Source: Clostridiales bacterium
GTDB lineage: Bacteria > Bacillota > Clostridia > Saccharofermentanales > Saccharofermentanaceae
NCBI GenBank assembly: GCA_017513085.1
Contig: JAFWDK010000019.1
Coordinates: forward strand, 128,001-192,000
Length of the DNA: 64,000 nt
Direction of reading: 5' to 3'
Shown here in pieces: positions 53,706 through 64,000 of the stretch (position 1 is the stretch's first letter; the number at the start of each line of letters is the position of its first letter). The translations under genes and the position numbers were made by a program. Under the pieces are notes generated by a model, which ran no database searches, was not told the origin of the DNA, and saw only the letters and a list, made by a program, of their open reading frames with translations.

Positions 53706-54164
53706 TTATTTGAACAGTTCTTTCTCTTGTTCCTTCATATCGTTTACACGAACCTGGTGACGTCCACCGTCAAAAGGCTCATTCATATAGGCATCGACGA
53801 TTCCCAATGCCAAAGAACTTCCGACTACGCGTGCGCCCATCGAAAGAACATTGGCATCGTTGTGCTGACGCGACATTCTGGCCATATATTCATTGGTACA
53901 AAGCGCGCAACGGATACCGGGAAACTTGTTTGCCACCATGGAAATACCGATACCGGTTCCACAGATCACAATACCTCTTTCTGCCTTCTCATCGATCACG
54001 TCCTTAGCCACTTTCTGGCCGGCCAGCACATAGCTGTACGGTACATCCGATGCGGTCGCGCCGCCCTCAAGGATCGTGTGACCCTGCTTGGTGAGATGTT
54101 CCACTACGATCTTCCGAAGTGCAAATCCTGCGTGATCCGATGCAATTGAAATAACCATTTTCAT
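53706..54164 (-). CDS. rpiB: ribose-5-phosphate isomerase B
   Basis: ASDHAG, ICGTGIG, RQHNDANVL, FDGGRH. Confidence 0.96.
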   Translation of the reverse strand: MKMVISIASDHAGFALRKIVVEHLTKQGHTILEGGATASDVPYSYVLAGQKVAKDVIDEKAERGIVICGTGIGISMVANKFPGIRCALCTNEYMARMSRQHNDANVLSMGARVVGSSLALGIVDAYMNEPFDGGRHQVRVNDMKEQEKELFK

Positions 54165-54173
54165 ACCCTCGCT

Positions 54174-55454
54174 TTATTTGATGTGTTTATGTGTAAATGT
54201 TCTCTTTCCGGAAGCATAATCGGCAACAATATTACCGTTGCCTACGATCTTATACTTATAGGTGACCAGACCTTCCAGACCAACCGGTCCTCTGGCATGA
54301 AGTTTACTTGTACTGATTCCGACTTCGGCGCCAAACCCGTAGCGCAAGCCGTCCGAGAAACGTGTCGAGCAATTCCAGAATGTATTTCCGGAGTCAACCC
54401 TGTTCATGAAAGTTTCTGCAGCTTCTTTATTCTTCGTTACGATAGACTCCGTGTGGCCGGAACCGTTCGTATTGATATGATCGATCGCTTCTTCCAGACC
54501 GGAAACGACCTTGATCGAAACTTCATAGTCGAGATACTCGTGATGCCATTCTTCTACAGGCAGCACATCAGGCAGGATCGCCTTCGTCTTCTCACAACCA
54601 TGAAGGATAACATTCTTTTCTTTCAGGACATCCGCAAGCTTCGGCAGGAATTCCTTCGCGATCGACTCATCGACCAGGATCGTCTCGCAGGCATTGCATA
54701 CCGACACATACTGTGTCTTACTGTCGACAGCCAGCTTTAACGCCATGTCGAAGTCCGCATCCTCGTGAATATACAGATGACATACGCCATCCGCGTGTCC
54801 CATTACCGGGATCGTACTGTGCTGCATGATATACTGGACAAAAGAATTGGATCCGCGCGGTATGATCAGATCGATATATTTATCAAGCTGGAGCATCTCC
54901 GCCACATCGTTTCTGGTCTCCATCAACGTGATCCAGCCCTTCGGGATACCGGCTTCCTCAGAAGCCTTCGCGATCACTTCGAAAAGGATACGATTTGAGT
55001 TGATGGCTTCGCTTCCTCCCTTCAGGCAACAGGAATTACCTGACTTCAAGGCCAAAGAAGCAATCTGTACCAGAGCATCCGGACGGGATTCGAAAATAAT
55101 ACCGAGAACACCGATTGGGCAGGACACGCGTGTCATTACCAAATCATCGTCAAGTTCTGTCTTGAGAAGTTCCCGGCCGACCGGATCCTCAAGCTTCGTC
55201 AGGCTGCGAAGTCCCTCGGTAACATCCGCAAGCTTATGGTCATTAAACACAAGTCTCTTCTGAAGCGGCATGGGGAGATCTGATTCCTGCGCATTCTTCA
55301 CATCGATACTGTTCGCGGCAAAGATGGCATCCTTATTCTCATTCAATGCCTCTGCGATCTTCAGCAACGCCGCATCTTTTACTTCCGTCGGAAGCACGGC
55401 CATGGCATACGACGCCTGCTTGGCTTCCTTCGCGCGAGATTCAAAATCTGTCAT
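54174..55454 (-). CDS. proA: gamma-glutamyl phosphate reductase
   Basis: IIFESRP, LKGGSEA, LIIPRGS, VCNACET, NCSTRFSDG, STSKLHARGPVGL. Confidence 0.98.
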   Translation of the reverse strand: MTDFESRAKEAKQASYAMAVLPTEVKDAALLKIAEALNENKDAIFAANSIDVKNAQESDLPMPLQKRLVFNDHKLADVTEGLRSLTKLEDPVGRELLKTELDDDLVMTRVSCPIGVLGIIFESRPDALVQIASLALKSGNSCCLKGGSEAINSNRILFEVIAKASEEAGIPKGWITLMETRNDVAEMLQLDKYIDLIIPRGSNSFVQYIMQHSTIPVMGHADGVCHLYIHEDADFDMALKLAVDSKTQYVSVCNACETILVDESIAKEFLPKLADVLKEKNVILHGCEKTKAILPDVLPVEEWHHEYLDYEVSIKVVSGLEEAIDHINTNGSGHTESIVTKNKEAAETFMNRVDSGNTFWNCSTRFSDGLRYGFGAEVGISTSKLHARGPVGLEGLVTYKYKIVGNGNIVADYASGKRTFTHKHIK

Positions 55455-55561
55455 ACTCAAACCTTCTTTTACATAGATTCAATATATTATATCAGATTCC
55501 CGCATAGATGACTTTAGAAAACGCAAGATTTTCATAATGAAAAGAATTGAAAGCGAATGAT

Positions 55562-55842: not shown

Positions 55843-57048
55843 CTAATTCTTCGGTGGCAAACGATAATAGTTTGTCAATTGACATCGAATCGATCCGTTA
55901 TACAATTTTCTTCTTTTATCTGCTTTTCGAATAACCTGGTTTTCAAAAGAATCATCCGGAGTGATGACCGACAAACGTATCCCTTTCCGGCAGAATCCGT
56001 TTTTGTCGAGATACGCGCGAGCGATTCCCCGATAGATGTCCGCCGCCGCTTCCGGAGTCAGCAAACGCCCGCCATAAGGCGGATTGCAGAGGATCAGCTG
56101 CCTGTTCATGCGAGTCCAGGAAGAGAGCTCCTCCGGAGTCTGATTCTTAAAATCTGCGACTTTAAATCGCGTAAAATCAGAAACCCCTGCCGCCATGGCA
56201 TTGCGTCTTGCCGTTTCCACTGCTTTCGGATCGATATCCGATCCATAGAAGTATATGTCATCCATAGGAGAAAGATCCGCCATATCCCGTGCTTCCTCTC
56301 TGGCCCGATCGAAGGGCATTTTCCCAAAATACGGCAGTTTTTCGGCTGCAAAATCACGTTTCAGACCAGGCGCGATATTTAAGGCCATCATGGCTGCCTC
56401 GATCACGATCGTTCCGGAACCACAGAACGGGTCGACCAACGCTTCCTCGCCGAAGAATCGGTATTGTGCCGCACTGACCATACCGGCCGCCAGAGTCTCC
56501 TTGATCGGAGCCTCGTGCATAAGAGGACGGTATCCTCGTTTATGCAGTCCATCGCCGGTAAGATCGATCATTACACGGACGTGGTCTTTGACTATTCCAA
56601 AAGAAATCTTCACAATACCCAGTTTCTCGTCCTCCAGGACATGCGCACCCTCCACAAGATGACGCGCCGAAAGAAGTGCTTTTACCATAGCCTTTTTCGC
56701 CAGACTCTGGCAGGCCGGAATACCGAAAAGTTTGGAATCTCTGGAGTAGCCATTCACATGGAATGCCCAGTCATGCGGGATCCAGTCCTCCCAGCGGATC
56801 TTCTCGAAGCCATCGAAAAACTCTTCAAAAGTCACGGCATCGAACTCCCCGATCGAAATAAGAACACGCTCTCCTCTTCTCACCCACATCAGGATCCTTG
56901 CGCTATCCTCGCGCATTGTTTCAGGCTTGGTGTCAACAAGCAAAAGTCCGTCCGTAACTTCGATCCGGCTCTTATCAAAGCCGATATTCAGAAGGTCCTC
57001 TGCGCAATAATGTTCCAGGCCGAAAAGGCAGGTGATCACGATTTTCAT
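55843..57048 (-). CDS. THUMP-domain class I RNA methyltransferase (RlmL/YpsC-like)
   Basis: FGLE, LHKRGYR, APIKETLAA, DPFCGSGTI, NPPYG; start MKIVIT at 57048. Confidence 0.92.
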   Translation of the reverse strand: MKIVITCLFGLEHYCAEDLLNIGFDKSRIEVTDGLLLVDTKPETMREDSARILMWVRRGERVLISIGEFDAVTFEEFFDGFEKIRWEDWIPHDWAFHVNGYSRDSKLFGIPACQSLAKKAMVKALLSARHLVEGAHVLEDEKLGIVKISFGIVKDHVRVMIDLTGDGLHKRGYRPLMHEAPIKETLAAGMVSAAQYRFFGEEALVDPFCGSGTIVIEAAMMALNIAPGLKRDFAAEKLPYFGKMPFDRAREEARDMADLSPMDDIYFYGSDIDPKAVETARRNAMAAGVSDFTRFKVADFKNQTPEELSSWTRMNRQLILCNPPYGGRLLTPEAAADIYRGIARAYLDKNGFCRKGIRLSVITPDDSFENQVIRKADKRRKLYNGSIRCQLTNYYRLPPKN

Positions 57049-57059
57049 CTTAATTCTCC

Positions 57060-58190
57060 TCACACATTTGAAATCACATCCAGAAGCGGCATCAGGATCA
57101 TCTGTGCCAGAAGGATGTGCAGAACGATAAACGGAATGCCCTGAAGGCATCTCGGGATTTTGCTGAACATAAGCCGGCGGTCAAGTACGTGCAGATAAAA
57201 CAGAACGATGGTAAAAGAAAACCAGACTCCGACGACCAGCGCCACCCACCATACAAAAAACGTTGAAACCGCCATTTCGCTACCGGTCGAAAAGCGGCGG
57301 AGGTAGAACACCAGGGGAAGTGCTACTTTCACGATCGTGATCAAGGGCAGGAACGGACTTTCGTCTATCACATCTTCCAGGTTGAACACACGGATCGCCA
57401 GAGTAAACAATGCAAAAGTCAGAAGTGTCGCATAGAGTACGACATGTCCCGGCTGACGAAGGATCTCCGGTGCATAAAGCACATATCCGATACTGATGCC
57501 GCCGCAGATCACATCCGTAACAAGCATGCACAAGATCAGGAGGAAGAATCCCTTTTCTCCTTTAATGGTAGGCGCCTGATATTTCTTGGTTTCATTACGG
57601 TTCCATCCAAGTACCCAGTTCTTCTCTGTTTCGTTTCTTTTCAACACCAGAAGGAACAGAAGACTGACGATCACCAGAAGCGTGGCGCCGGAAGAGTGAC
57701 TCAGGATCTGGACATTATGTGTCTTAAAGATACCAAGTTTAATTCCGAAGAAAGAATCGAATCCCAAAACTTCACGTATCATGGCAATGACCAGGCCATT
57801 GACCAGGTAGAATGCTCCGCCCTGAAGATATCCCGAATCGGTTCCGGACTCGCCTTCCAGAAGAAGATAATAGAAAAGCGGAGCGGAAAGGAACAGGAAT
57901 GTCGATTCCGGCAAAAGGAAAAACGCGGGCATAGGGACCGGAAGTGCGCAGAATTGGGCAAGAAGCGTTGCGATCTCACCGATCACGGCCGCTCCTAAAG
58001 CAAATACACCCCAGCAGATCCGCCGGTTCTTGATAAAGTGTACCGTAGCGATATTGATCAGATAGAAGAGCACGAACTGTACGACCGAGCTGAGGAAGAT
58101 CTTCAGCGAACCGGTCGTGCACAGCATCATCAAGGCAACGGAAACCATGATGTAGAACTGTTTTTTTGTAATGTACGCTACATCCTGCAT
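57060..58190 (-). CDS. divergent fused RnfE-RnfA-like membrane protein
   Basis: About 12 TM helices; MIREVLG...FFG and SSGA match RnfE IRExLG / PGAF; FLPLITI matches RnfA FLPLITTNC; follows the rnfG-like gene; start MQDVAY at 58190. Confidence 0.68.
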   Translation of the reverse strand: MQDVAYITKKQFYIMVSVALMMLCTTGSLKIFLSSVVQFVLFYLINIATVHFIKNRRICWGVFALGAAVIGEIATLLAQFCALPVPMPAFFLLPESTFLFLSAPLFYYLLLEGESGTDSGYLQGGAFYLVNGLVIAMIREVLGFDSFFGIKLGIFKTHNVQILSHSSGATLLVIVSLLFLLVLKRNETEKNWVLGWNRNETKKYQAPTIKGEKGFFLLILCMLVTDVICGGISIGYVLYAPEILRQPGHVVLYATLLTFALFTLAIRVFNLEDVIDESPFLPLITIVKVALPLVFYLRRFSTGSEMAVSTFFVWWVALVVGVWFSFTIVLFYLHVLDRRLMFSKIPRCLQGIPFIVLHILLAQMILMPLLDVISNV

Positions 58191-58191
58191 T

Positions 58192-59427
58192 TCAACCCAC
58201 CCAGTTAAGATACTCACGCATAAATTTATAAGCCACATTGATCGTACTCAGCGTAGCCGAGCACTGGGACTTCATTTCCGGAAGTCCCTGAATATATGTA
58301 CGGATCTCCGAGAGCGGAATGCCATCCACACTCTCCGAGAGGATATTACCGGAATCACCCGTGACCACACCATCTTCACCTCCGACAACACCGATCTGAG
58401 ACGGCGCCGAAGTCGGTGTCGGAGCCGGCGTAGCCGTAGCAGTCAGCGTACCGGGAGCAGTCGGATCGGACGTTGTTTCCGTCTGAGTCGTCGTTTCCAC
58501 CGTCTCGGAAGAATTCTCACCCGAATCTTCCCCATCCGGATTCTCTTTCTGTTTCAGATACATCTCTTTCGTCAACGATGCACGTGAATTATCGATACAG
58601 ATATTGACCAGATTGATAAAATCCGAGATATTCATGGTGACCCCGTCAATGATCTGCGTGGTTCCGTCGGACTTCATCGCCAGTTTCATCGGATCCTGAA
58701 CCAGGATCAACCGGTTCTGTACACGGTAAGCCTGTTCCGCCCAGATCTTGCCGCTGATGTTATACTCGCCATCGATTGAATCCCGGGAACGAAGACGTCC
58801 GTTCTTATTCACCGCGTCCCACTCGACACGGACGATACGACCGCCACGCACCTCGATCTCCACGTGATCCTGATAACCATCCTTGGCCGGTCCTTTTGCC
58901 TCCGCATAATAGACACCATCATGAAGACCCAGCAGCGGATCATACTCCACCTGGTACTGCACATCAGCCACGATCTGCTGATCCACAGTCACCGGAATAC
59001 GCGCGCCGCAAAGCTGACTCTTCAATTCCTCCAGTTCTTCCTCACCCAGAGAGATCGCATCCTCTTCTTCGCTCAGAATACGGAAATCCATCAGGTTTTC
59101 ACCGTTATCACTGATACTGAGCTGGGTATGGATCGAACCCTCAGGAAGCTCCATCGCCACATCCAGAATATAACCGATCAGCTTTCCATCCTGGTCATGC
59201 GCGCTAAACACATAGCGAATATCCTGATAGTTGTCCAGAATATCCGTCTTCAGCGGCCGGTACTCTGTCGCCATCAGCAAAGAACCGAACTCCTCCTGAT
59301 ACTGCTGCTGCTCATTCTTCCTCGAACGGCTCGTCGTCTGGTAATAACACGTAAACAGGAAAGCCAACGACAAGATCACAACGATCAGCGCGCGGATCGT
59401 AAAACCTTTATAAAACGAACGGCTCAT
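58192..59427 (-). CDS. divergent RnfG-like protein with extra FMN-bind-like domain and Thr/Pro linker
   Basis: N-terminal TM; GKLIGYI...SI...ILSEEEDAISLG is RnfG-like; DGVYYAE...VEIEVRGGRIVRVEWD...W.EQ...IDGVT is an FMN_bind-like fold. Confidence 0.72.
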   Translation of the reverse strand: MSRSFYKGFTIRALIVVILSLAFLFTCYYQTTSRSRKNEQQQYQEEFGSLLMATEYRPLKTDILDNYQDIRYVFSAHDQDGKLIGYILDVAMELPEGSIHTQLSISDNGENLMDFRILSEEEDAISLGEEELEELKSQLCGARIPVTVDQQIVADVQYQVEYDPLLGLHDGVYYAEAKGPAKDGYQDHVEIEVRGGRIVRVEWDAVNKNGRLRSRDSIDGEYNISGKIWAEQAYRVQNRLILVQDPMKLAMKSDGTTQIIDGVTMNISDFINLVNICIDNSRASLTKEMYLKQKENPDGEDSGENSSETVETTTQTETTSDPTAPGTLTATATPAPTPTSAPSQIGVVGGEDGVVTGDSGNILSESVDGIPLSEIRTYIQGLPEMKSQCSATLSTINVAYKFMREYLNWVG

Positions 59428-60389
59428 TCTTCCACCTCCCTGTACCAGGAAGATTTTGAAAAAGCTCTTGGCCGGAAATAGTAGTCAAAAACCGGTGTCA
59501 GTGCATTCATCATCAGGACCGGATAGACCATGGCATAAGAAGCATTGCCGAAGCGGTACAAGATCAATGTCAAAAGCCCCGCGCCGCCGCCAAAGAGGCA
59601 CTGCGCTCTCTTATCCATCGGGACCGTCGTACAATCATGAAGGGTGAAAACGCCGACAAACAGGATTCCTCCGCGAATGAACCACAGGAAGAAATCCATA
59701 ACGTTCACGCCGGACCAGTTAAAAGGAATATATCCCAGAAGGATCACCGCAAAATAAGAGAACGGTGCATATACCGAAAAGAGTTTCCGTTCAAAAAGTA
59801 TCAGCGCACCGATCACGATCAGTACCAGCGAAGTCGTACCGACCATGCCGCAGATCCTGCCGGAAATCACATCGAGAGTGCCGACCCCGGATGCGGAAAA
59901 AGCACTGGAAGGAACTGCGTTTCCTGTCAGAAGTGAGCCGATTTTCCAGAAGTTTTCCATCGGCTGTTCCGAGGCCACCATCTGTGTCGGGAACGCGATC
60001 TGAAGAAAAGCTCTCGCCGCCAGCGCCGGATTAAAAATATTTCTTCCTGCACCACCGAATGCCTGCTTGACCAGAAGCGCGCTGAATGCCGCTGCCAGTG
60101 CCACCGCCCAGAACGACGCGGATACCGGAACAAGCATGGCCAGGATCACGCCGCTGACCAAAGAACTATAATCTACATGAAGCGGCAATTCCGGATATAG
60201 TTTTTGCGTGCAGAAAAAATCACAAAGAAAAAACACCGCACATGAAACGGCCACAAGGATCAATACTCGGATCCCGTAATAAAACACAGCTCCGATGAGG
60301 ATCGGCAGCAACGCCAGAAGCACATACATATAGCGCTCGGATGCCGGTTGATTGGCATGAATATGAGGAGCCAGTTGTTTTCTCTTCAT
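59424..60389 (-). CDS. rnfD: RnfD-like membrane subunit (divergent)
   Basis: PHIH, D.SSLVSG.ILA, VKQAFGGAGRNIFNPALAAR, G.VGTTS, VLMMNALTP.FD. Confidence 0.88.
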   Translation of the reverse strand: MKRKQLAPHIHANQPASERYMYVLLALLPILIGAVFYYGIRVLILVAVSCAVFFLCDFFCTQKLYPELPLHVDYSSLVSGVILAMLVPVSASFWAVALAAAFSALLVKQAFGGAGRNIFNPALAARAFLQIAFPTQMVASEQPMENFWKIGSLLTGNAVPSSAFSASGVGTLDVISGRICGMVGTTSLVLIVIGALILFERKLFSVYAPFSYFAVILLGYIPFNWSGVNVMDFFLWFIRGGILFVGVFTLHDCTTVPMDKRAQCLFGGGAGLLTLILYRFGNASYAMVYPVLMMNALTPVFDYYFRPRAFSKSSWYREVEE

Positions 60390-61726
60390 ACGATGCCTCT
60401 CTTTCTCGCCCGATATGCGGCTTTCGCGATATTAGTGGAAAGCTCGATTCCGGACGGGCATACATAGGAGCAGGCCCCACAGGCGATACACTGTTCCACA
60501 GACTCCGAAACAGCCGCCTCTTCCTGACCGACCTCAATCAAGCGGTTGATCAGATACGGAGAAAGTCCGACCGGACATGCACCCACACAAGCTCCGCAAT
60601 GAATACAATTCATGCGCAAAGGTTCAAACTTACGGATAATGGTAATCGCCGTAGTCGTCTTGATGATCGGAACATTCAGGTCCTTAATGGCCACGCCCGT
60701 CATCGCGCCGCCCCAGGCGATCCTCTGCGCAGTATGCGCACCCGGCACGCGTTCAAGAAGTTCCGATACGCTCGTTCCGATCGGAACCAGAACATTATGG
60801 CCCGTGATCGTATCACCGGAGATCGTCACGATACGCGAGATCAACGGCTGGTTCTTCTCGATCATGTCACAAAACGCCTGACATGTCGACGCATTGAAAA
60901 GCACTGCCTTTACTGTCTCTTCCGGATCCTTGCCGATTGGAAGCTCCACACCGTACAAGGCCTTGATTATCAGTTGTTGATATCCCTGCGGATAACGTGA
61001 TTTAAAAAGCCGGACCTCGATCTTCTTATCCAGATATCGATGACTATATTCGGCGACGGCTTTATGTAAAGCATCGATCTCGTCGATCCAGAGATCTTCA
61101 ATACAAAAGATCACCTTTTTCACACGGCAAATACCGCCCAGAGCCATCGCTCCTTGCAGCACGCGGGCCGCATTCACTCGAAGATGGTGAAGATCGCAGG
61201 CAAGGAATGGCTCGCTCTGGGTCGCATTGACCAAGAGCGTGTCCACACCTGCTTTTTCTGCTTTTTTACACTTGTAAAATGTTGAGATACCTTCGCCGCC
61301 CATCCCGCAAATACCGGATGTCCATAAAAGCTTGCTTAATTCCGCAAGAGAAAGAGGATCCACGTTTTTTCTGGGTTGTATCTTCGAAGAAAACCGACGG
61401 CTCAGGTCATTCTTGATCCAGACGGCCTGGCAGCCGGTCCGGTTCGGTAACCGAATCGAATCGATCTTCGTGACCTCTCCTGAAATACTGGCATGGACCG
61501 GAACTCCATTCATATCAGACGGCGCGCCGATCAGATCGCCTATGGCGACAGTATCTCCCACGGAAACCACCGGATCACAGGCAGTTCCTCTATGCTGAAG
61601 CATGGGAAGCACAACTTCCTTTGGTGAACACACTTCAAGAAGGGCTTCGCGCATGATCTTACGTTGCCGAACGAAGTCCAAACCATCGTTAGGGAGGTTT
61701 CCTCTTTTGAAAGTAGCCTTCTTCAT
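60386..61726 (-). CDS. rnfC: RnfC-like subunit (divergent; two [4Fe-4S] motifs kept)
   Basis: PMLQH.G, PVHASISGEV, YPQG, CIHCGACVGACP, CIACGACSYVCPS. Confidence 0.9.
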   Translation of the reverse strand: MKKATFKRGNLPNDGLDFVRQRKIMREALLEVCSPKEVVLPMLQHRGTACDPVVSVGDTVAIGDLIGAPSDMNGVPVHASISGEVTKIDSIRLPNRTGCQAVWIKNDLSRRFSSKIQPRKNVDPLSLAELSKLLWTSGICGMGGEGISTFYKCKKAEKAGVDTLLVNATQSEPFLACDLHHLRVNAARVLQGAMALGGICRVKKVIFCIEDLWIDEIDALHKAVAEYSHRYLDKKIEVRLFKSRYPQGYQQLIIKALYGVELPIGKDPEETVKAVLFNASTCQAFCDMIEKNQPLISRIVTISGDTITGHNVLVPIGTSVSELLERVPGAHTAQRIAWGGAMTGVAIKDLNVPIIKTTTAITIIRKFEPLRMNCIHCGACVGACPVGLSPYLINRLIEVGQEEAAVSESVEQCIACGACSYVCPSGIELSTNIAKAAYRARKRGIV

Positions 61727-61753
61727 GTGCCCACCTTTCGCACAAGAAGCATA

Positions 61754-62821
61754 TCAGTCGATATAATCCTTCAATTTCTTGCTGCGGCTCGGATGACGAA
61801 GCTTACGGAGCGCTTTCGCCTCGATCTGACGGATACGCTCACGAGTAACGTTGAATTCACGACCTACTTCTTCCAGAGTGCGCTGACGACCATCATCCAG
61901 GCCGAAGCGCAGGCGGAGAACTTTCTCCTCACGGGCAGTCAGGCTCTTCATCGCATCGAGGAGCTGTTCCTTGAGGAGTGTATAAGCAACCTGATCAGCA
62001 GGAGACATTGCGTCATCATCCGGAATGAAGTCACCCAGATGGCTATCTTCCTCTTCACCGATCGGCTTTTCCAACGATACCGGCTCCTGAGAGATCTTCT
62101 GGATCTCACGAACCTTCTCGACCGGAAGACCCATGCGCTCGGCAATCTCTTCTACGGTAGGCTCACGGCCAAGTTCCTGGATCAAAGCACGCTGCTCACG
62201 AACCAGTCTGTTGATCGTCTCTACCATATGTACCGGAATACGGATCGTTCTGGCCTGATCCGCGATCGCACGAGTGATCGCCTGACGGATCCACCATGTT
62301 GCATATGTACTGAACTTAAATCCTTTTGAATGGTCAAACTTATCTACTGCCTTGATCAGACCCAGATTACCTTCCTGGATGAGATCGAGGAACTGCATAC
62401 CACGACCAAGATAGCGCTTCGCAATAGATACAACAAGACGAAGGTTTGCCTCGATCAGCTGGGCCTTCGCGTCCTCGTCTCCGTCCAGCATACGCTGGGC
62501 CAGATCCTGTTCCTGGTCCGCAGTAAGAAGCGGAACCTTACCGATCTCTTTAAGGTACATACGTACCGGATCGTCCATTCCGGCGCCATCCATAGCACCG
62601 GCATCAAGATTCAGGTCGCGGATCGCATCGTCCTCGATGCTGGTTTCCGCAACGATCGAAATACCTTTAGCCTCCAGCTCATCAAAGAGCTTATCGACCA
62701 TATCCGGATCGCCGTCCTGCTCTTCGATCACGTTCATGACGTCGAGCGAAGAAATGCTGTGGTTGTTAGCATTTGCCAGGTTCTCCAGTTTTTGCAGAAT
62801 GTTTGAAAAATCACTTGCCAT
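61754..62821 (-). CDS. sigA: primary RNA polymerase sigma factor (SigA/RpoD)
   Basis: [58 protein letters not shown]. Confidence 0.99.
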
Positions 62822-62892: not shown

Positions 62893-63675
62893 TTACTTCT
62901 CTGTATTTTCTTCCGACTCTTTTTCCGGAACGTAAAATTCAACCAGGTCTTCACTGACCGCGCCATCGTTCCCATCAATCTTAAATCTTCCATTCGGAGC
63001 ATATACAGTAAGGACTACGTCCTTGTAATAATGAGCATCGCCGGATTCGTATCCGTATTCTTCACCACGGATCGCGCAATAAGATTCAAACGTCTTTAAA
63101 ACTTTAGCCTTATCGGTATCACTCGAAGAGACCAAAGAAACTTCGTTATTCTTTGTGCCGCTGATCTTAAACCCTGTCGTATATCCATCAGCAGCCTCAG
63201 TATTGACTGTCAGCTCACCTGCAGCAATACAAGTAGACATCTGCTTGTAGATCTTCTTATAGTGAGAAGAGCGAAGCAAAGTAATCGGCAACGAAATACC
63301 GATGATTAAAGCGATACAGATCGCTGTGGTCGTATATACGATAAGTTTGACCTTCTTAGGTGTCTGGATATCATCCGGAGAGATCTCAAAGAGTTTCTCC
63401 ACCTTCTTGTCTTTGGAAGTGGTAGCCTTATCGACCTTAACAGCCTTCTCCACGGCGTTATCAAAGACCGGTGTAACAGTGTGACGCACCGCCTTGGACT
63501 CACGCTTAGGTTGCGGAAGATTCGGGAATTCTACCCCATCCGGATGGTTAAATATTTCAATTGCTTCTGTCGCCGGGAAAACGCAGTCGCAAAAAACGCA
63601 TTCACATAATTCGTCGTTGCTGTCCACCATAATGAGTGAACCGCAGTTCTTGCATAAACCTTGTTTAGTCGCCAT
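62893..63675 (-). CDS. hypothetical Zn-ribbon membrane protein
   Basis: N-terminal CKNC...CVFC, one TM helix, C-terminal domain; RBS AAGGACGAGG. Confidence 0.78.
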   Translation of the reverse strand: MATKQGLCKNCGSLIMVDSNDELCECVFCDCVFPATEAIEIFNHPDGVEFPNLPQPKRESKAVRHTVTPVFDNAVEKAVKVDKATTSKDKKVEKLFEISPDDIQTPKKVKLIVYTTTAICIALIIGISLPITLLRSSHYKKIYKQMSTCIAAGELTVNTEAADGYTTGFKISGTKNNEVSLVSSSDTDKAKVLKTFESYCAIRGEEYGYESGDAHYYKDVVLTVYAPNGRFKIDGNDGAVSEDLVEFYVPEKESEENTEK

Positions 63676-63838
63676 TTATTCCTCGTCCTTTGCATTATCG
63701 CCTACAAAAGGGTATAATCCCACAAGTAAGCACAGTATATTATATACACTGGTTTGTGTAAGTGCAAATACTTTTTTGCACAAATTTCAGTTTTTTATAT
63801 ATTATAATTTTATGGCAGTTTTTGAAGGAGCGCGCCGG

Positions 63839-64000
63839 ATGCCTGAAAATACAACACTTTCCCAGAATTCCAACCACGAGAAGTTTATGCGCGCTGCCCT
63901 TTCCGAAGCGCAAAAAGCATATGCCCTCGGGGAATCCCCTATCGGGTGTGTGATCGTCAAAGACGGAAAGATCCTCGCAAGAGCCCACAATCTTCGACAG
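63839..64000 (+). CDS. tadA: tRNA adenosine(34) deaminase (partial, 3' end off window)
   Basis: Manual translation MPENTTLSQNSNHEKFMRAALSEAQKAYALGESPIGCVIVKDGKILARAHNLRQ matches the TadA N-terminus; RBS AAGGAG. Confidence 0.85.
   Translation, partial: MPENTTLSQNSNHEKFMRAALSEAQKAYALGESPIGCVIVKDGKILARAHNLRQ

Follow-up and report, generated by a model that had tools for sequence, protein, structure and literature searches.

The cofactors of the Rnf/Nqr membrane subunits are called strictly conserved in the relevant passages of a 2025 review (PMC12174285), and mutating any membrane cofactor site is reported to inactivate the Rnf complex of Acetobacterium woodii (PMC11889175). The same review passages describe the Na+-NQR (NqrABCDEF) as an earlier offshoot of an rnf duplication that lost rnfB and rewired its electron path. 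Its NqrA subunit lost its cofactors yet was kept. A third group, the NQR/RNF-like systems of Meheust et al. 2021 (PMC8238504), is presented as a partial Rnf/Nqr apparatus presumed to use just one of the two transmembrane electron paths, in which a PF03116-type NqrB/RnfD domain is fused to the NAD-binding domain of NqrF (PF00175) in a flavinylation gene cluster, mainly in Actinobacteria and the candidate phyla radiation. Here and below, statements on these systems and the roles of individual cofactor-site residues (PMC9588780, PMC11889175) follow those passages of the cited papers that deal with them. We analyzed a stretch of 64,000 nucleotides from a Clostridiales bacterium of the Saccharofermentanaceae (GCA_017513085.1, contig JAFWDK010000019.1, positions 128,001 to 192,000), hereafter the window, and describe in it an Rnf-derived operon of four genes that we call C', D', G' and EA'. 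Judged by its residues, the ferredoxin-input and transmembrane half of the complex appears to have been dismantled, and the arm on the cytoplasmic side, made up of the C' pocket, two [4Fe-4S] clusters and the D' riboflavin pocket, appears to be kept.

Compared with canonical Rnf (solved as 9eri from A. woodii, 7zc6 from Clostridium tetanomorphum and 8ahx from Azotobacter vinelandii), the window operon has the same C-D-G-E-A order, with the RnfC domains and both [4Fe-4S] motifs in C', PF03116 and the riboflavin-binding asparagine and aspartate in D', a transmembrane (TM) anchor and RnfG-like fold in G', and an EA' protein colinear with RnfE followed by RnfA. It differs in having no RnfB, in the fusion of E to an A half that lacks the first TM helix (TM1), in the absence of all four cysteines of the intramembrane [2Fe-2S] cluster, in a D' without the threonine that attaches flavin mononucleotide (FMN), in a G' without the flavinylation motif, in altered flavin/NADH motifs of C', in a G' twice as long through a second domain, a linker and a C-terminal domain, and in being retained where ApbE was not found. 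Nine defining features were tested for system membership, and seven of them are lacking here. NQR lost the cofactors of its cytoplasmic subunit and kept all those in the membrane, whereas the window operon did the reverse; in addition, none of its four proteins has an NqrF-type domain, C' keeps its Fe-S motifs and D' is nearer to RnfD than to NqrB. Unlike the NQR/RNF-like systems, D' has PF03116 only, and the operon has neither ApbE nor a recognizable FMN_bind match. We rate the operon as a third, cofactor-reduced branch of the Rnf/Nqr family. In line with the suggestion of the initial annotation, made from the sequence alone, that the system may be undescribed, we found no description of such an operon in the literature searched, which left most subscription journals outside its scope.

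The operon descends from Rnf. C' contains PF13375 (RnfC_N, barrel-sandwich), PF01512 (Complex1_51K, NuoF-like) and a Fer4 4Fe-4S dicluster domain in Pfam, passes the rnfC model TIGR01945 (310.6 bits; cut-off 245.95) and matches the solved chain 9eri_C with an E-value of 5e-58. D' scores 224 bits on PF03116, the sole Pfam domain found in it, and 174 bits on the rnfD model TIGR01946, under the cut-off of 207.05; it matches solved RnfD (7zc6_D) at E 3e-35 and NqrB at E 2e-14. Given that D' is far nearer to RnfD than to NqrB, and that C' and D' are 31% and 30% identical to the RnfC and RnfD encoded elsewhere in the same genome, the window operon is an Rnf-type paralog. The genome's other copy is a complete canonical rnfCDGEAB operon on contig 16, with the motifs GLGGAAFPT, NAAECEP, GGAMMG, DAVSSATP and SGAT and the Cys motifs of E and A, and it holds the genome's sole RnfB-type match. 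Its RnfE (L005:3944-4777, minus strand) has a Cys-rich tail, with six Cys in about 20 residues, outside the Rnf-Nqr domain; as listed, the open reading frame (ORF) also has a long N-terminal extension that may be a start-codon artefact. The initial annotation had read four intact ORFs in rnfC-D-G-E/A order between sigA and an rlmL-like gene, Rnf in origin, with no rnfB following, and had raised the question of a canonical operon elsewhere. The ORF list confirms the layout, and the origin is supported by the rnfC and rnfD models, the identities of 30-31%, the G' fold and the EA' profiles; the gene after EA' is the rlmL-like methyltransferase, and the canonical operon is the one on contig 16.

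EA' gives no match in Pfam or NCBIfam, including none to PF02508. A profile of 17 members, searched against 1.84 billion representative proteins, returned 105 hits at E <= 0.001, of which 28 at E <= 1e-10 are the family itself. The remaining 77 are mostly proteins of about 190-220 amino acids (aa) that match profile positions ~15-190 only, and nine of the ten tested among them are PF02508 Rnf-Nqr proteins. Many of these shorter proteins score 24-93 bits on PF02508, against about 200 bits for canonical RnfA and RnfE, and may be divergent stand-alone Rnf-Nqr-like proteins in other lineages. In hhalign, the N-terminal half of EA' matches the Rnf-Nqr set with a probability of 98.4% (E 9e-15). Against 177,635 Protein Data Bank (PDB) sequences, the full profile reached A. 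woodii RnfE (9eri_E, E 0.0031, positions 12-184 to 18-192), C. tetanomorphum RnfE and, through its C-terminal half, A. woodii RnfA (220-369 to 38-187). A profile of the C-terminal half had a single match in the same set, RnfA again (9eri_A, E 0.1, 27-174 to 40-187 of 191), which starts past TM1 and is colinear with the rnfE-rnfA gene order. The AlphaFold2 (AF2) model (mean predicted local distance difference test score, pLDDT, 77.9; predicted TM-score 0.79) has six helices and then five. Other comparisons gave fainter likeness: Foldseek paired the model with NqrD and RnfE chains at a probability of 0.89-0.97 and a target-normalised TM-score of 0.45-0.52, with E above 0.001; BLASTP against the genome's own RnfE and RnfA found short matches only (E 4e-4 and 1e-3); and the ESM Atlas gave sub-threshold leads (0.77-0.78) to Rnf-Nqr clusters. 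The two halves of EA' do not match each other significantly in hhalign (probability 14%). RnfA and RnfE have opposite membrane orientations (PMC11889175), and the loss of the first A helix would let the E and A halves join directly with that arrangement preserved.

None of the [2Fe-2S] ligands survives this fusion. In A. woodii these are C25 and C108 of RnfE and C25 and C113 of RnfA. RnfE C25 aligns to a residue other than Cys in EA' and C108 to T97, RnfA C25 falls in the missing helix, and RnfA C113 corresponds to R298, the RnfA segment PLHKALGIYLPLITTNC being aligned to PLITIVKVALPLVFYLR in a register fixed by P-L-x7-L-P-L. There is no conserved Cys column in EA', and no column has Cys in more than 15 of 39 sequences. 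The Na+-site residue E115 of RnfE is replaced by an invariant Pro. Thus the profile searches bear out the first reading of E and A as one polypeptide, an E-like half and then an A-like half, and the Cys motifs are absent as first stated; the register then given, LITTNC to LITIVK, was off by ten residues.

In D' the threonine that carries covalent FMN in RnfD (T153 in C. tetanomorphum, T156 in A. woodii) is also gone. The D' loop that aligns to the canonical DAVSSATP has no S-x-A-T-P in the window or in its genus, and comparison with the genome's own RnfD, solved RnfD and the family loop alignment agrees with the initial annotation on this point. Of 64 D' sequences from the loci that the G' profile recovered, 3 contain D-x-x-[ST]-[GS]-A-[ST]. 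DxVSSA[TS] is intact in a few D' proteins and half-decayed in others, as DAVSAVIG or DAVSAAIG (L041/L097 (G113), L042/L109 (G116) and L087; also L071, L074 and L102), so that the motif can be followed through successive stages of loss in a single orthologous gene. Given these few intact motifs and the intermediates, the D' ancestor probably had a flavinylation site that has since been lost in most lineages. The riboflavin positions are kept: where A. woodii RnfD has its ligands N123 and D249, D' has N120 and D252. The Asn and the Asp are each conserved in 84 of 85 D' rows, a set in which some genomes stand twice through two overlapping fetches. D' also keeps the N-terminal APHI motif (an APHIHA tail in the window) and a C-terminal Y-x-R-P-R tail; the termini of A. 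woodii RnfD dock into RnfC (PMC11889175).

G' gives no Pfam match and, in NCBIfam, weak hits to PplA and rnfG_Methano. In Foldseek its AF2 model (pLDDT 75) matches 2kzx (4.7e-8), 7zc6_G (3.2e-5) and 9eri_G (4.7e-5), and the G' profile reaches 2kzx_A in the PDB at E 2.2e-27 over positions 169-283, with SGAT aligned to DGVT. Domain 2 of G' is thus homologous to free-standing FMN_bind lipoproteins (2kzx from Clostridium thermocellum, 3o6u from Clostridium perfringens). Free-standing relatives of this kind carry DAISGA[ST] or DAITGAT and lie at or near the PF04205 cut-off of 22 bits (two domain-2 relatives, with DAISGAS and DAITGAT, score 24.8 and 21.7), whereas the G' motif is altered. The passages of PMC12052999 that treat the flavinylation motif give it as D-x-x-[S/T]-G-A-[S/T] and describe its Asp as strictly conserved. 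The G' consensus at this site is [QES]-x-x-[DEPQ]-[GDN]-V-[TSK], with an invariant Val in place of Ala and with Asp at the Asp position in one member; the FMN-bearing position is Thr or Ser in most members and Lys in two genera. D-x-x-[ST]-[GS]-A-[ST] is found in 0 of 65 G' sequences, which suggests that G' has no recognizable flavinylation site. The initial view that the membrane redox-cofactor ligands were lost stands in G' for the broken surrounding motif and not for the threonine, which remains in the window (DGVT against SGAT). In two genomes the open frame around G' is far longer than the gene (G110:C59:233149-234321, 606 aa; G108:C45:25711-26979, 829 aa), perhaps because the upstream frame reads through or because D' and G' are fused there.

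Electrons might still cross the membrane as in Rnf if G' and D' bound flavin non-covalently and EA' held a metal or flavin by residues other than Cys, with free ferredoxin in place of RnfB as the input. The Thr or Ser at the FMN position of most G' proteins, their FMN_bind-derived fold, and the flavinylated ancestor implied by the D' proteins that retain DxVSSA[TS] speak for this possibility. We consider it unlikely, because A. woodii Rnf loses its activity when [2Fe-2S] Cys, RnfG Thr or riboflavin-ligand residues are mutated (PMC11889175), EA' has no conserved Cys and a Pro at the Na+ site, and EA' evolves fastest of the four subunits, to the point that in one genus its likeness to Rnf-Nqr is lost (see below).

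C' departs from this pattern of loss. Both CxxCxxCxxxCP motifs are intact in the window, and all eight [4Fe-4S] Cys are present in 84 of 84 aligned C' rows. The motifs around the nucleotide pocket, compared with the genome's own RnfC and with solved RnfC chains, are changed: C' reads GMGGEGIST for GLGGAAFPT, NATQSEP for NAAECEP and GGAMTG for GGAMMG. These changes are family-wide, with Glu, Asp or Asn in the Gly-rich loop in 84 of 84 rows, Q-S-E-P for E-C-E-P in nearly all rows and [LMI]-T-G for M-M-G in all rows but two. The kept clusters and altered NADH/FMN motifs are as the initial annotation had them. By analogy with NuoF, we take the Gly-rich loop of RnfC-type proteins to bind the FMN phosphate. 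Given that the alterations are conserved across the family, the nucleotide/flavin pocket of C' looks modified rather than ruined.

The state of C' and D' bears on a second alternative, in which the operon encodes a shortened oxidoreductase: C' would handle a cytoplasmic nucleotide or carrier, electrons would pass through the two [4Fe-4S] clusters to the D' riboflavin and on to a membrane-soluble or outside acceptor, and G' and EA' would serve as anchor and acceptor site. We regard this as possible but doubtful. In its favor are the invariant Fe-S cysteines and the near-invariant riboflavin ligands, pocket changes that are conserved and not random, and a gradient of conservation that puts the strongest constraint on the redox arm; moreover, NQR is a precedent for a re-plumbed Rnf (PMC12174285) and passes electrons from riboflavin to quinone. 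However, no acceptor is known, an acidic residue or Asn sits in the Gly-rich loop of every C' row where, if the NuoF analogy holds, flavin is held, and the strong conservation of the G' outer domains is left unexplained.

The frames of the operon are held open by purifying selection, as the initial annotation had proposed. In 20 loci selected from 33 genomes matching EA', the ORFs of C', D' and G' are intact in all 20 and that of EA' in 19. The ratio of nonsynonymous to synonymous substitution rates (dN/dS), limited to pairs with dS <1 because distant pairs were saturated or not computable, is 0.02-0.08 for C', 0.07-0.08 for D', 0.07-0.11 for G' and 0.08-0.16 for EA'. Identity to the window proteins ranges over 51-89% for C', 36-81% for D', 29-76% for G' and 23-72% for EA', a conservation gradient of C' > D' > G' > EA' with EA' the fastest-evolving subunit. 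The observations named beforehand as damaging to the proposal were not made: the ligands are not conserved at shifted positions, no ortholog is frameshifted and no RnfB was found elsewhere in a genus, g8, that is treated below.

With the G' profile, 65 loci were recovered from public genome contigs. These are metagenome-assembled genomes (MAGs), many from ruminants by their titles, labeled Clostridiales, Clostridia, Mageeibacillus, Saccharofermentans, Oscillospiraceae or Ruminococcaceae. Next after G' comes a hydrophobic ORF of 353-424 codons in 64 of the 65, and the last stops at the contig end. At 29 of these loci the fourth protein scores under 100 bits on the EA' model; as a group, the 29 still match EA' (hhalign 98.0%, E 1.7e-13, 309 columns), and their likeness to Rnf-Nqr is no longer detectable (probability 0.4%). 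Within the window's family, 139 of 142 genomes have G', as do 82 of the 84 of good quality; no match contains a stop, and all but one of the genomes with G' carry a single copy. A MAG of the window's genus has G' and EA' in full twice, on different contigs (G225:C28:16318-17535 and G225:C145:2534-3751), which could reflect mixed strains in the bin or a true duplication. Among 398 Clostridia genomes, full-length G' is limited to the window's family (the window genome and 11 of 11), and the other 33 genomes with a G' match have one domain only. In the order's three other families, a single-protein query with EA' found 0 of 65, 0 of 39 and 0 of 54.

The distribution of the canonical genes is different. 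In genera g1-g7, PF02508 (RnfA/E, NqrD/E) was found in 40 of 41 genomes, ApbE in 40 of 41 and G' in 41 of 41, and the matches to the rnfB model span its RnfB-specific N-terminal part and adjoin rnfA. In genus g8, G' was found in 97 of 100 genomes, PF02508 in 0 of 100 and ApbE in 3 of 100; 16 matches to the rnfB model all cover its generic ferredoxin part only (positions 89-178), with RnfB-specific matches in 0 of 100. Given that G' persists in g8, the operon is independent of RnfB, of RnfA/E and, in nearly all g8 genomes, of a flavin transferase elsewhere. We read the derived operon as stand-alone and family-restricted.

The selection and distribution data decide on a further explanation, that the operon is a decaying duplicate of canonical rnf or a set of spare subunits that need canonical Rnf and its RnfB. 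At first sight the loss of ligands does resemble decay, and a canonical rnfCDGEAB is present in the same genome. Nevertheless we hold this to be very improbable and reject both versions, given dN/dS of 0.02-0.16, G' matches without stops in 139 genomes, intact ORFs in 19-20 of 20 loci, and a genus in which the operon is nearly universal and canonical RnfA/E and RnfB were not found.

Based on these comparisons, the operon appears to lack the sites to take electrons from ferredoxin and to carry them across the membrane, and we infer that the complex would not be a ferredoxin:NAD+ Na+/H+ pump. The initial annotation had gone further and described the membrane cofactor ligands and the redox wire as lost, and it had suggested that the Rnf scaffold may now serve as a sensor, transporter or structural complex. 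The description of loss fits the four [2Fe-2S] Cys, the D' Thr and the G' motif, and with them the transmembrane part of the wire; it does not fit the two riboflavin positions of D', and with these and the C' cysteines kept, the complex need not be redox-dead. At roughly even confidence, we propose that C', D', G' and EA' form a stand-alone membrane complex, derived from an Rnf operon, in which the Fe-S/riboflavin arm of C' and D' drives the membrane part. The arm would sense or turn over a cytoplasmic redox carrier, and its redox or ligand state would drive conformational changes in the membrane part made of D', EA' and G'; the output might be a gated passage of ions or a signal to the well-conserved outer domains of the enlarged G'. 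Rnf itself has a coupled inward/outward switch of A/E and a movement of RnfG (PMC11889175). More tentatively, at somewhat less than even confidence, the operon may represent a third functional class of the Rnf/Nqr superfamily, a redox-responsive gated ion path or a route of inside-to-outside signaling through G', co-expressed with sigA, indispensable to this entire family of gut Clostridia and working without covalent flavin or intramembrane Fe-S.

Several points weigh against this proposal. The gating or signaling step is reached purely by reasoning, and the kept Fe-S clusters and riboflavin ligands suit an active shortened oxidoreductase equally well; the D' Asn and Asp may also be conserved for structural reasons. 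A non-covalent flavin in G' or D' would be compatible with their sequences. The genome's own canonical RnfG, with its Asp two residues further off, likewise escapes the strict flavinylation pattern, so the failure of the motif in G' is suggestive and not decisive and rests mainly on the change of S-G-A to D-G-V. The A-like half of EA' taken by itself is weakly matched (E 0.1 against the PDB; probability 2% against the Rnf-Nqr set in hhalign), and Foldseek with the EA' model gave no match at E <= 0.001. Finally, many of the genomes are incomplete MAGs, in which "not found" is not the same as "absent"; however, in g8 the contrast between G' in 97 genomes per 100 and RnfA/E, RnfB and ApbE in 0-3 per 100 is too large for assembly gaps.

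G' is very well conserved in its outer parts (VQDPxKLAxKSDG, GEDGVV and the C-terminal helix), which would suit an envelope scaffold or transporter without a redox role. In such a complex the C' Fe-S clusters would be structural, and the task of D', EA' and G' would be to transport a small molecule or a component of the envelope, or to keep it in place. NqrA is an RnfC-type subunit that lost its redox role (PMC9588780, PMC11889175), and the operon adjoins the housekeeping gene sigA. The family-wide eight Cys and riboflavin ligands are hard to explain structurally, though, no subunit matches a transporter family in Pfam or NCBIfam, and the Foldseek matches of EA' to transporters have a TM-score <=0.25, all of which makes this explanation improbable.

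Structure prediction and RNA data bear on whether the subunits belong together. D' and EA' were predicted to fold together with a score of 0.71 against 0.15 for the best control, passing a mark that 58 of 80 solved complexes attained, as did 2 of 110 mismatched pairs; because structures of Rnf and Nqr complexes exist, the score may come from resemblance and not from binding. The runs share at least 93% of contacts with a partner pLDDT of at least 75, and the predicted interface joins the last two helices of the A-like half to the conserved KQxFGGxGxNxxNPA region of D'. In two studies, RNA-library contigs cover parts of C', and in one of the studies parts of D' and G' as well; they bridge the sigA-C' junction in both (61437-61841 in X2, 61580-61879 in X5) and the D'-G' junction in one (59342-59621 in X2). 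The EA' stretch has no cover in X2, X4 and X5, which are recorded as RNA, and is covered in X1, whose RNA status is a guess. Such contigs show neither strand nor level, and DNA carry-over is possible. The operon is probably transcribed together with sigA.

The features of the locus are collected in Table 1. The four genes lie head to tail on the minus strand in the order C', D', G', EA', all with intact frames, and the C'/D' and D'/G' overlaps are 4 nucleotides each. The start of EA' is most likely at 58190, because its homologs of 374-390 aa begin at the residue corresponding to M17 of the listed ORF; this start lies 1 nucleotide past the G' stop and is preceded by a GGGTGGG ribosome-binding site. 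Between the end of sigA and the C' start codon is a spacer of 27 nucleotides with the ribosome-binding site AAAGGTGGG inside, and a promoter/terminator scan based on a crude consensus match found no terminator-like site there. In the 65 loci, the order sigA-C'-D'-G' is kept wherever the contig extends that far, with sigA directly upstream of C'. On the other side, the rlmL-like gene adjoins the operon in 14 of the 20 fetched loci; its ORF is listed as 55843-57150 with a likely start at M35, tblastn alignments to most relatives beginning at residue 31-35. The gene directly upstream of sigA here is not dnaG, which is often found in that place. The start given by the ORF lister for the deaminase gene is probably too early, and the two genes beyond the rlmL-like gene, a housekeeping flank, were named from their translations.

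Table 1. Positions of the operon, its parts and its neighbors in the window (AF2, AlphaFold2; SAM, S-adenosylmethionine)
Feature	Positions	Strand	Basis and remarks
C' (446 aa, RnfC paralog)	60386-61726	-	ORF list; CxxCxxCxxxCP at 60572-60607 and 60455-60490, GMGGEGIST at 61280-61306, NATQSEP at 61208-61228, GGAMTG at 60695-60712
D' (321 aa, RnfD paralog)	59424-60389	-	ORF list; loop aligned to DAVSSATP at 59889-59912, N120 within 60021-60032, D252 within 59619-59639
G' (411 aa)	58192-59427	-	ORF list
G' N-terminal TM helix	59338-59406	-	
G' RnfG-like domain 1	~58978-59295	-	
G' FMN_bind-derived domain 2	~58543-58935	-	DGVT in place of SGAT at 58630-58653
G' low-complexity T/P/S linker, then conserved C-terminal domain	58195-58380 (C-terminal domain)	-	
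EA' as listed ORF	57060-58238	-	ORF list; likely gene 57060-58190, 376 aa from M17
EA' RnfE-like half, 6 helices	57606-58190	-	AF2 and profiles
EA' RnfA-like half, 5 helices, without TM1	57063-57605	-	AF2 and profiles
sigA (355 aa)	61754-62821	-	Conserved upstream neighbor of C'
rlmL-like SAM-dependent RNA methyltransferase	55843-57048	-	Downstream neighbor in the window's genus; outside the system
260-aa protein	62893-63675	-	Directly upstream of sigA; N-terminal CxxC...CxxC zinc-ribbon-like motif, one predicted TM segment
TadA-like deaminase	starts inside 63494-64000	+	
ProA-like (gamma-glutamyl-phosphate reductase-like)	54174-55460	-	
RpiB-like sugar-phosphate isomerase	53706-54164	-	

The operon amounts to a natural, selected version of Rnf without three of the four membrane cofactor sites and without the input subunit, and it is nonetheless present in nearly every genome of the family. 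As a natural dissection, it can show what the D/A/E/G scaffold does without transmembrane electrons and what the RnfC Fe-S/RnfD riboflavin arm does by itself. The single-chain EA', with one helix lost and the inverted topology preserved, is a case of fusing an inverted-repeat heterodimer. Lastly, the derived operon is the sole Rnf-like system found in one abundant ruminant-gut genus. If C' and D' were given the label "Rnf" by automatic annotation, metabolic reconstructions would wrongly credit that genus with ferredoxin:NAD+ ion pumping.

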